64,000 nt of DNA, taken from Acutalibacteraceae bacterium (GTDB taxonomy: Bacteria > Bacillota > Clostridia > Oscillospirales > Acutalibacteraceae). Location of the stretch: NCBI GenBank assembly GCA_045593385.1, contig JAZNWP010000048.1, forward strand, positions 55,212-119,211, in the 5' to 3' direction. Both the position numbers and the translations under genes were made by a program. Position 1 is the stretch's first letter; the number at the start of each line of letters is the position of its first letter. Shown piece after piece: positions 21,973 through 22,770 of the stretch. The notes beneath the pieces were generated by a model. That model saw nothing but the letters and a program-made list of their open reading frames with translations, was not told the DNA's origin and ran no database searches.

Positions 21973-22770
21973 TTATTCTCCTACAAAAATTAAATCCTCA
22001 ACGTATTTGCGTTCTTCTCCTTTGAGGATCGGCATATTAAAATCAATACCAAAGCCCCTACGCCAAGCAGTGCCTCGCTTCCAGCAAGTAGGATAGTCAT
22101 TCCAATTAATACCCTTCTGTTCGTGTAGCATATCTTGAATATCATTACAAGATTTGCCTTGAAGTTCTACGTGAGAGAAGTTAGCCTGGCCCACCATTTG
22201 AATTGAGTTGCGCGTCGCATCTAATTGACGCCAATAGATGAGATTACACACTTCTTCTTTTGGAATATTGAAACAACGAGAATCAAACATAGCACCCTTG
22301 TCATAGGCTTTTCTATAAGTTTCGTATTGTTTGTTAAAAATATCCCAGGTAGGATTATCCCATCCCACTTTATTGAAAGTTGTATTAAACCAATTTTCTG
22401 CCTCATCAGCAAAGAATTTGTTAAATGCCATAGTTGCCATAGAAGCAGAGATAGAACAAATTTTTTGAATCTCATAACCGAACCAAGCTTCGGTTTGTAG
22501 AGTCTGATAATCAAGCAAGATAAGAGTTATCTCATCAGATTGAGTATATCCAAAGACGCAACCCTGAATATTTTTACACAAATATTCCATTGTGCGAATC
22601 ATAGCATTACTTAATACTTCATCAAAAGGTCTTTCAAATCCTTTAGTAAATGTATGAAATGCTTTACCATCGATTCTTATTGCTACTGGCATTCGTCTTG
22701 TCATACCAAAACGATATGTATTTTCATAGAATGTTTTCATTCTTGTTCCAAGGTCATCATGAATTGCCAT
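21973..22770 (-). CDS. tRNA-His guanylyltransferase (Thg1)-like protein
   Basis: VAIRIDGKAFHTFTKGFERPFDE...GYTQSDEITL matches the Thg1/TLP palm-domain motifs. Confidence 0.8.
   Translation of the reverse strand: MAIHDDLGTRMKTFYENTYRFGMTRRMPVAIRIDGKAFHTFTKGFERPFDEVLSNAMIRTMEYLCKNIQGCVFGYTQSDEITLILLDYQTLQTEAWFGYEIQKICSISASMATMAFNKFFADEAENWFNTTFNKVGWDNPTWDIFNKQYETYRKAYDKGAMFDSRCFNIPKEEVCNLIYWRQLDATRNSIQMVGQANFSHVELQGKSCNDIQDMLHEQKGINWNDYPTCWKRGTAWRRGFGIDFNMPILKGEERKYVEDLIFVGE

Follow-up and report, generated by a model that had tools for sequence, protein, structure and literature searches.

What bacterial-type Thg1-like proteins (TLPs) do in the cell has been an open question since 2010, because G-1 is encoded in their hosts and a TLP seems unnecessary for tRNA-His (PMC3061083). 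BtTLP of Bacillus thuringiensis prefers tRNAs truncated at the 5′ end, whatever their identity, and additions templated by Watson-Crick pairing (PMC3061083; PMC3701042). Its kcat/KM for G-1 addition is 5500 M-1 s-1 opposite C73 and 108 opposite A73, which is ~50-fold less efficient; the value for U-1 opposite A73 is about 230, and with GTP and UTP competing U-1 is favoured 40-fold over G-1 (PMC3061083). Efficient non-templated G-1 addition has to date been observed with eukaryotic enzymes only, and the mitochondrial tRNA 5′-editing TLPs of Acanthamoeba and Dictyostelium rebuild the 5′ acceptor strand with the 3′ strand as template (PMC3061083). TLP homologues occur in ~160 phage records, where tRNA-His guanylyltransferase is the usual annotation; that a phage TLP “may modify phage or host tRNAs” was stated in papers of 2013 and 2018, and a review of jumbo phages places Thg1 among RNA-repair functions (PMC7824862). 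A literature search found no study of what a phage TLP does, nor one examining the tRNA-His. Phage T4 restores tRNAs with anticodon-loop breaks by means of Pnkp and Rnl1, a set of kinase, phosphatase and RNA ligase activities, and has no TLP.

The window considered here is the whole stretch of DNA that was analysed, 64,000 nucleotides of an Acutalibacteraceae bacterium assembly (GCA_045593385.1, contig JAZNWP010000048.1). In-frame TAGs cluster in long ORFs of the late or structural kind (eight in 45242–48754 and six in 34915–36864), and the early region between 5 and 34 kb, which holds the TLP gene, is nearly TAG-free. Together with two tRNA(CUA) genes, these TAGs in long late ORFs show that the phage is TAG-recoded (code 15). 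Both suppressor tRNA(CUA) genes, at 59866–59941 and 60084–60158 on the minus strand, carry a G73 discriminator, as in phage tRNA-Gln.

A sequence-only reading of the window had proposed that the ORF at 21973–22770 (minus strand; 265 aa, ATG start) encodes a Thg1-family enzyme, and had paired it with a tRNA-His lacking an encoded G-1. The family assignment is borne out. The protein covers positions 3–130 of the 130-position Pfam profile Thg1 for the N-terminal palm catalytic domain (PF04446; E=5.5e-28, 97.9 bits against a cutoff of 29.2) and hits PHROG 4717, “tRNA-His guanylyltransferase” (E=5e-85); none of the NCBIfam models matches it, and no identical protein is on record. These matches, like the Rfam match of the tRNA-His described below, are strong and beyond chance. 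The closest PDB structure is 4KGK, the BtTLP chain (E=4.7e-57, 40.5% identity), which aligns over residues 5–121 and 157–263. Its three conserved active-site carboxylates, D30, D75 and E76, equivalent to D29, D76 and E77 of hTHG1 (PMC3701042), align with D34 (within RIDG), D79 and E80 (within QSDE) of the window TLP, all intact, and its E16 and R32 correspond to E12 and R28 of BtTLP. The C-terminal domain is present, residues 157–263 aligning with BtTLP 122–239, although Pfam Thg1C stays below threshold (18.1 bits vs 26.3), and a stretch of ~35 aa (residues 122–156) is an insertion without BtTLP counterpart.

Alignment to the Thg1 and TLP families, the check put forward with the original proposal, also resolves the class. 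Eukaryotic Thg1 chains in the PDB comparison match only weakly (E=1e-5 to 5e-9). The HINNLYN motif defines eukaryotic Thg1, and in the aligned stretch the window TLP reads WRQLDATRNSIQMV and BtTLP WRQQDASKNSISMV, against ...THINNLYN in the eukaryotic chain 5xox. Thus DATRNSI in the window protein and DASKNSI in BtTLP, with the common form DA[ST][KR]NSI, stand where the eukaryotic chain has HINNLYN. By these sequence features the protein is a bona fide Thg1-family member, a reverse (3′-5′) RNA polymerase or nucleotidyltransferase of the bacterial-type TLP class, as opposed to eukaryotic Thg1, and is probably catalytically active. It shares the catalytic carboxylates and the DA[ST][KR]NSI motif with BtTLP (PDB 4KGK/4KGM) and differs from it in the insertion and in its setting, a TAG-recoded gut phage in which the gene lies inside a block of RNA-repair and NAD-salvage genes. 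To judge from the 40.5% identity, it may share the BtTLP preference for templated repair of 5′-truncated tRNAs.

Within 8 kb of the TLP gene, on the same (minus) strand, are encoded an RNA ligase, an RNase T-type exonuclease, two metallophosphoesterases, a nucleotidyltransferase and a cREC protein. The RNA ligase (17878–19284) has an N-terminal OB fold (Pfam PHA02142 OB fold and RNA_ligase; PHROG 968, E=2.3e-64) and is syntenic and 72–75% identical in relatives. Also syntenic in relatives are the RNase T-type 3′-5′ exonuclease (20092–21009; Pfam RNase_T, E=8.8e-13), a sigma-70 family factor directly downstream of the TLP (20996–21883; Pfam Sigma70 r1.2, r2, r3 and r4), the second metallophosphoesterase (25516–26400; Pfam Metallophos, E=3.5e-12; PHROG 1649), the nucleotidyltransferase, of Pol-beta type on a reading of its motif (26594–27433; PHROG 388, E=1.7e-18), a protein with a cREC_REC “cyclic-phosphate processing receiver” domain (29078–29458; Pfam PF20274, E=5.4e-16) and a YqeY-like protein (17340–17786; Pfam PF09424, E=9.5e-11), all on the minus strand. 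About 14 kb from the TLP, again on the minus strand, are a P-loop polynucleotide-kinase-like protein (8157–8717; PHROG 505 “polynucleotide kinase”, E=3.8e-19) and an adjoining phosphoesterase (7599–8156; PHROG 547, E=1.3e-45), homologues of which stand beside the TLP in two further loci (L013 and L014).

The gene order MVP, cREC, nucleotidyltransferase, two metallophosphoesterases, TLP, sigma factor, RNase T, RNA ligase and NAD salvage is kept, wholly or mostly, in seven IMG/VR loci (L002–L007 and L010), whose TLPs are 68–70% identical to the window TLP and whose block proteins share ~30–83% amino-acid identity with their window counterparts. A conserved neighbour of the TLP is the other metallophosphoesterase (24112–24813, minus strand; Pfam Metallophos, PHROG 547): its homologue adjoins the TLP in all seven and lies directly beside it in the distant loci L009, L013 and L014. 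RNA ligase and end-healing enzymes are therefore encoded together in the window and kept together in relatives, except that the kinase-like gene has no homologue in the 20-kb related loci. Such a block is the signature of a toolkit for RNA end-healing and repair. Genes analogous to the Pnkp/Rnl1 set of T4 thus lie near the TLP, and compared with T4 a 5′-end fill-in would be an added step.

Several further genes accompany this block. A full set for NAD salvage and synthesis at 10515–16877 (minus strand) comprises NAD synthase, nicotinamide phosphoribosyltransferase, a PRPP synthetase-like protein and nicotinamidase. The IMG/VR relatives and Phass-1 have it as well, and it may serve to reconstitute NAD as a counter-defence. 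A major-vault-protein homologue (30756–33245, minus strand) with MVP shoulder, Vault_3 and Band_7 domains lies beside the RNA-repair block in relatives too, as does a DUF2828/DUF7788 protein (38311–39849, minus strand), and an SPFH/flotillin protein is encoded at 5742–7265 (minus strand). Just upstream of the TLP are two small paralogous Cys-rich ORFs (22952–23203 and 23850–24203, minus strand) with the common motif INIKNGEKIWFTCGRR; Pfam gives no match for the 117-aa ORF. TLP relatives at 60–70% identity lie on three GTDB MAG contigs (L130–L132) from Clostridia, Absconditabacterales and Erysipelotrichaceae bins; since the contigs probably belong to phages, a host cannot be reliably assigned from them.

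With modest confidence, we lean towards the reading that the TLP serves general tRNA 5′-end repair or maturation within this conserved RNA-repair module, with the tRNA-His as a plausible client. It would be made from the early, nearly TAG-free block alongside the RNA ligase, kinase-like protein, phosphoesterases and nucleotidyltransferase, with the NAD-salvage set adjacent, and would add nucleotides to tRNA 5′ ends in the 3′-5′ direction with the 3′ acceptor strand as template. Truncated or incompletely matured 5′ ends would thereby be filled, and tRNAs would stay usable during infection. We infer which RNAs the enzyme acts on, in which direction it repairs them and whether tRNA-His is among them; the damage repaired is hypothetical, because no host nuclease cleaving tRNA 5′ ends was identified here. 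General repair is supported by the family and the active site, by the substrate preference of BtTLP, by the place given to Thg1 in the jumbo-phage review, by the synteny, by two phages described below (PMBT8 and CM1) and, circumstantially, by the repair-gene neighbourhood. No tRNA-His was found within flanks of 5–10 kb on each side of the TLP in 14 IMG/VR loci and 3 MAG loci.

In the window itself the tRNA-His(GUG) gene lies 39 kb from the TLP gene, at 61186–61259 on the minus strand, and no second tRNA-His is present. ARAGORN and Rfam both predict tRNA-His(GTG) at 61190–61259 (48.4 bits, above the gathering score of 29), and adding A73 and CCA to this prediction gives the full interval. From 5′ to 3′ the leader tatatat-A is followed by CCTGCTT TA GTGT AGTGGAA GCAC G CAACA TTGTGGC TGTTG AAGGA GCGG TTCGAAT CCGC AAGCAAGG A CCA. 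Position -1 (61260, 5′ of C1) is A, and so is the base preceding the encoded CCA; because both -1 and 73 are A, a G-1:C73 pair is impossible. The gene accordingly departs from the canonical bacterial arrangement, an encoded G-1 paired with C73, and shows the eukaryote-like one, A73 without a usable encoded G-1. Every sequence detail given for it in the sequence-only reading, the A at -1 and the missing G-1 included, proved correct. As in the eukaryotic Thg1 system, a 3′-5′ nucleotidyltransferase of the same superfamily thus occurs together with an A73 tRNA-His, although the window enzyme is only weakly similar to eukaryotic Thg1 and carries the TLP form of the HINNLYN stretch.

The bulged acceptor stem described earlier is likewise upheld. 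When cloverleaf folding energies were computed with the three other arms held fixed, the best structure (-17.4 kcal/mol) had C1-G72, a 7-bp acceptor stem with one bulged A in its 3′ strand, a 4-bp T stem and A73-CCA in register, compared with -14.8 kcal/mol for the ARAGORN register and -10.8 kcal/mol for the strictly canonical one; since its folding energy is the lowest, the bulged stem is the best reading. In the ARAGORN/Infernal register C2 is mismatched with A71, position 73 is G, and one additional A precedes CCA. Neither an 8/4 acceptor/T architecture nor a 5′-editing reading built on that register was accepted as the primary model, the bulged-A/A73 model being 2.6 kcal/mol more stable and agreeing in CCA register with the other CCA-encoding tRNAs. 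Relative to mitochondrial 5′-editing, the acceptor stem is similarly imperfect, but its defect is a bulge in the 3′ strand (or a C2.A mismatch) and not 5′ mismatches in the first three pairs, and no 5′-trimming nuclease was identified. Set against the canonical tRNA-His of Phass-1, Vibrio phage D260 and Stenotrophomonas phage CM1, the window gene has the same anticodon and the same array context, with the same ATAT leader in Phass-1, but A-1/A73 in place of G-1:C73, C1-G72 in place of G1-C72, the bulged A and the 4-bp T stem.

All 24 tRNA genes of the window are on the minus strand. In the array spanning 57454–63846, ATAT occupies positions -4 to -1 in 17 of the 24 tRNAs and T stands at -1 in 21; acceptor stems are clean in 21 of 24, and CCA directly follows the discriminator in all but tRNA-Asn. 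For the tRNA-His the ATAT leader is displaced upstream by one base, which places A61260 in the slot of the G-1 encoded by Phass-1.

One explanation for these features is that the enzyme and the tRNA are unrelated, the tRNA-His being in decay, poorly functional or able to work with its encoded A-1, while the TLP serves other RNAs. Besides the 39 kb between the two genes, it can draw on the bulged acceptor stem, the 4-bp T stem and an Rfam score that is the third lowest of the 24, and on the finding that A-1 and C-1 variants of tRNA-His remain substrates of yeast HisRS (PMC3061083). In addition, the loop-and-spacing pattern of the gene is absent from IMG/VR and from 185,579 GTDB species genomes, and the same loop-only pattern recovered just five unrelated AT-rich loci from metagenomes; exact and gapped patterns of the tRNA-His found no match in IMG/VR. 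Against it stand the canonical form of all three loops (T loop TTCGAAT, GG in the D loop, anticodon loop UUGUGGC), a CCA in register, a position 7 nt upstream of the following tRNA in a closely packed array, nearly all of it functional by appearance, and the fact that the window has no other tRNA-His. We consider this explanation quite improbable.

The five metagenome contigs (L019:2372–2422 and L020–L023) share a sequence resembling tRNA-His, in which the acceptor helix is just 5 bp long (AGATG/CATCT) and is followed by A and CCA; ARAGORN makes no prediction for it, and ordinary tRNA-Phe, Ala or Asn genes occur on four of the five. Other routes to related arrays were equally unproductive. The 5′ half of the adjacent tRNA-Met as query gave no match, the PD-(D/E)XK gene and a tail-fibre-like ORF used as anchors did not reach the tRNA arrays of relatives, and a glycosyltransferase anchor returned 80 related loci, none with a tRNA-His, in a region that is not syntenic.

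To place the pair in a wider context, TLP and tRNA-His were compared across phages in a survey that is a small sample without phylogenetic correction. Phass-1, the nearest named code-15 relative, lacks a TLP in its whole genome and has a canonical G-1:C73 tRNA-His. Bacillus phage PHZU0001 and other Bastillevirinae carry a TLP, that of PHZU0001 being 75.5% identical to BtTLP, together with a tRNA-His that has C1-G72 and A73 and whose -1 base is C or A. In the B. cereus-group phages (L027–L030 from PHZU0001, L035–L039) this form is uniform and lacks CCA, and compensatory acceptor-stem changes in Bacillus phage QCM8 suggest from their sequence that the tRNA-His is under selection. Fusobacterium phage FNU3 has a TLP, encodes a G-1 opposite A73, with an RNA ligase gene 1 kb away, and for this encoded G-1 is only partly concordant with a pairing of TLP and tRNA-His; the window, the Bastillevirinae and Phass-1 are fully so. 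At 75.5% identity BtTLP and the phage enzymes are in effect one protein, and the comparison suggests that BtTLP is itself of phage type.

Other phages are discordant. Stenotrophomonas phage CM1 has a TLP beside a canonical tRNA-His with encoded G-1:C73. In Staphylococcus phage PMBT8 a TLP is present and no tRNA was found in 87.1 of 88.1 kb, so that the enzyme there must work on RNA of the host. The genes orf137–145 of Bc431v3, the TLP among them, are missing from Bacillus phage BCP8-2, which has thus lost the enzyme and keeps an A73 tRNA-His without G-1 of the Bastillevirinae type; JBP901, Chewbecca, MrDarsey and Nate have the same A73 type, the absence of a TLP in these four being inferred from a match list with Bacillus TLPs down to 67.7% identity. 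A tRNA-His without G-1:C73 also occurs in two of three control phages, Streptomyces phages TunaTartare (U-1/C73) and BRock (U-1/U73), Streptomyces not being among the listed TLP organisms; the third control, Vibrio phage D260, scored for tRNA-His alone, is canonical G-1:C73. Vibrio phage vB_CoeS_P1, with no tRNA in 92 of 137 kb, was left unscored, and the Lak phages and LR745208 have no tRNA-His within 20 kb of the TLP. In this small survey, therefore, the TLP does not consistently co-occur with a G-1-less tRNA-His across related genomes; the association is suggestive in the clade nearest the window enzyme and not strict.

These observations bear on a second alternative, in which the tRNA-His is made without G-1:C73, RNase P leaves C1, and the main job of the TLP is to supply position -1 (G, or U templated by A73) for charging by HisRS. 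The A-1 and A73 of the window gene, the Bastillevirinae pairing with its QCM8 changes, FNU3 and the TLP-free, canonical Phass-1 all speak for it. So does yeast, where BtTLP rescues thg1-delta with A73 tRNA-His only and the -1 nucleotide is then present (PMC3061083), and a U-1:A73 pair would stabilise the window stem from -17.4 to -18.7 kcal/mol. It is countered by the BtTLP kinetics at A73, by BCP8-2 and the four phages like it, by CM1 and PMBT8, by the two Streptomyces phages without G-1, and by the register of the ATAT leader, which suggests that A-1 may simply be retained. A dedicated role of this kind appears doubtful to us.

The two parts of the original proposal that concern function thus fare less evenly than those that concern sequence. 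The pairing of the TLP with a G-1-less tRNA-His gains from the recurrence of A73, from Phass-1 and from the yeast rescue, and loses from the BtTLP kinetics and from CM1, PMBT8 and BCP8-2. Addition of G-1 stands as one of several possible jobs for the TLP: because of the BtTLP kinetics and the yeast rescue, it is chemically possible but not the preferred reaction, BtTLP preferring templated repair and, at A73, U-1 over G-1. Under general 5′-end repair, the reading we favour, the tRNA-His is a plausible client because its G-1:C73 identity pair cannot form; RNase P would cleave it at +1, and the TLP would then add -1 opposite A73, either a templated U or, less efficiently, a G. The recurrence of A73 tRNA-His in the TLP-bearing lineages closest to the window enzyme (Bacillus Bastillevirinae and Fusobacterium FNU3) nevertheless counts against purely general repair and hints at a more specific link.

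The TLP family is already annotated in phages, and the window enzyme adds a member. Its link to the tRNA-His is a testable lead, and a dedicated partnership is possible. The strongest form of such a partnership, in which the tRNA-His of the window phage, the Bastillevirinae and the Fusobacterium phages has been re-designed (A73, no G-1:C73) and depends on a phage or host TLP for -1 (a templated U, or G), seems unlikely. If true, a bacterial-type TLP would for the first time have a physiological role in -1 addition, and there would be a natural substrate for BtTLP, a long-studied enzyme type at 75.5% identity to a phage TLP. TLP-bearing phages with an A73 tRNA-His offer a concrete system in which to set tRNA-His maturation against 5′-end repair as counter-defence, with a natural control pair in Bc431v3, which carries the TLP, and BCP8-2, which has lost it. 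Should neither role hold, the window would contain an ordinary annotated phage gene and an unusual tRNA.

Some other members of the tRNA set deserve mention. The only other clearly aberrant tRNA is tRNA-Asn(GUU) at 61928–62001 (minus strand), which has no encoded CCA, no ATAT leader and a U3.U70 mismatch. The ARAGORN “Met2” call at 62358–62435 (minus strand) is off by one base, a register error; read from C62435, the gene is a second initiator-like tRNA (CGCGGAG..., C1.A72, A73, CCA), which follows the CCA of the first one directly, without a spacer. Three similar genes for PD-(D/E)XK-type endonucleases lie among the tRNA genes (40869–41291, 58514–58921 and 62966–63457, minus strand) and resemble mobile homing-type insertions; the first is Pfam PDDEXK_5, the other two being assigned by sequence resemblance. 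Between tRNA-Cys and tRNA-Gly, near the DUF2828 gene, the stretch at 41511–41627 (minus strand) matches the Rfam “drum RNA” family RF02958 with 74.8 bits against a gathering score of 43.
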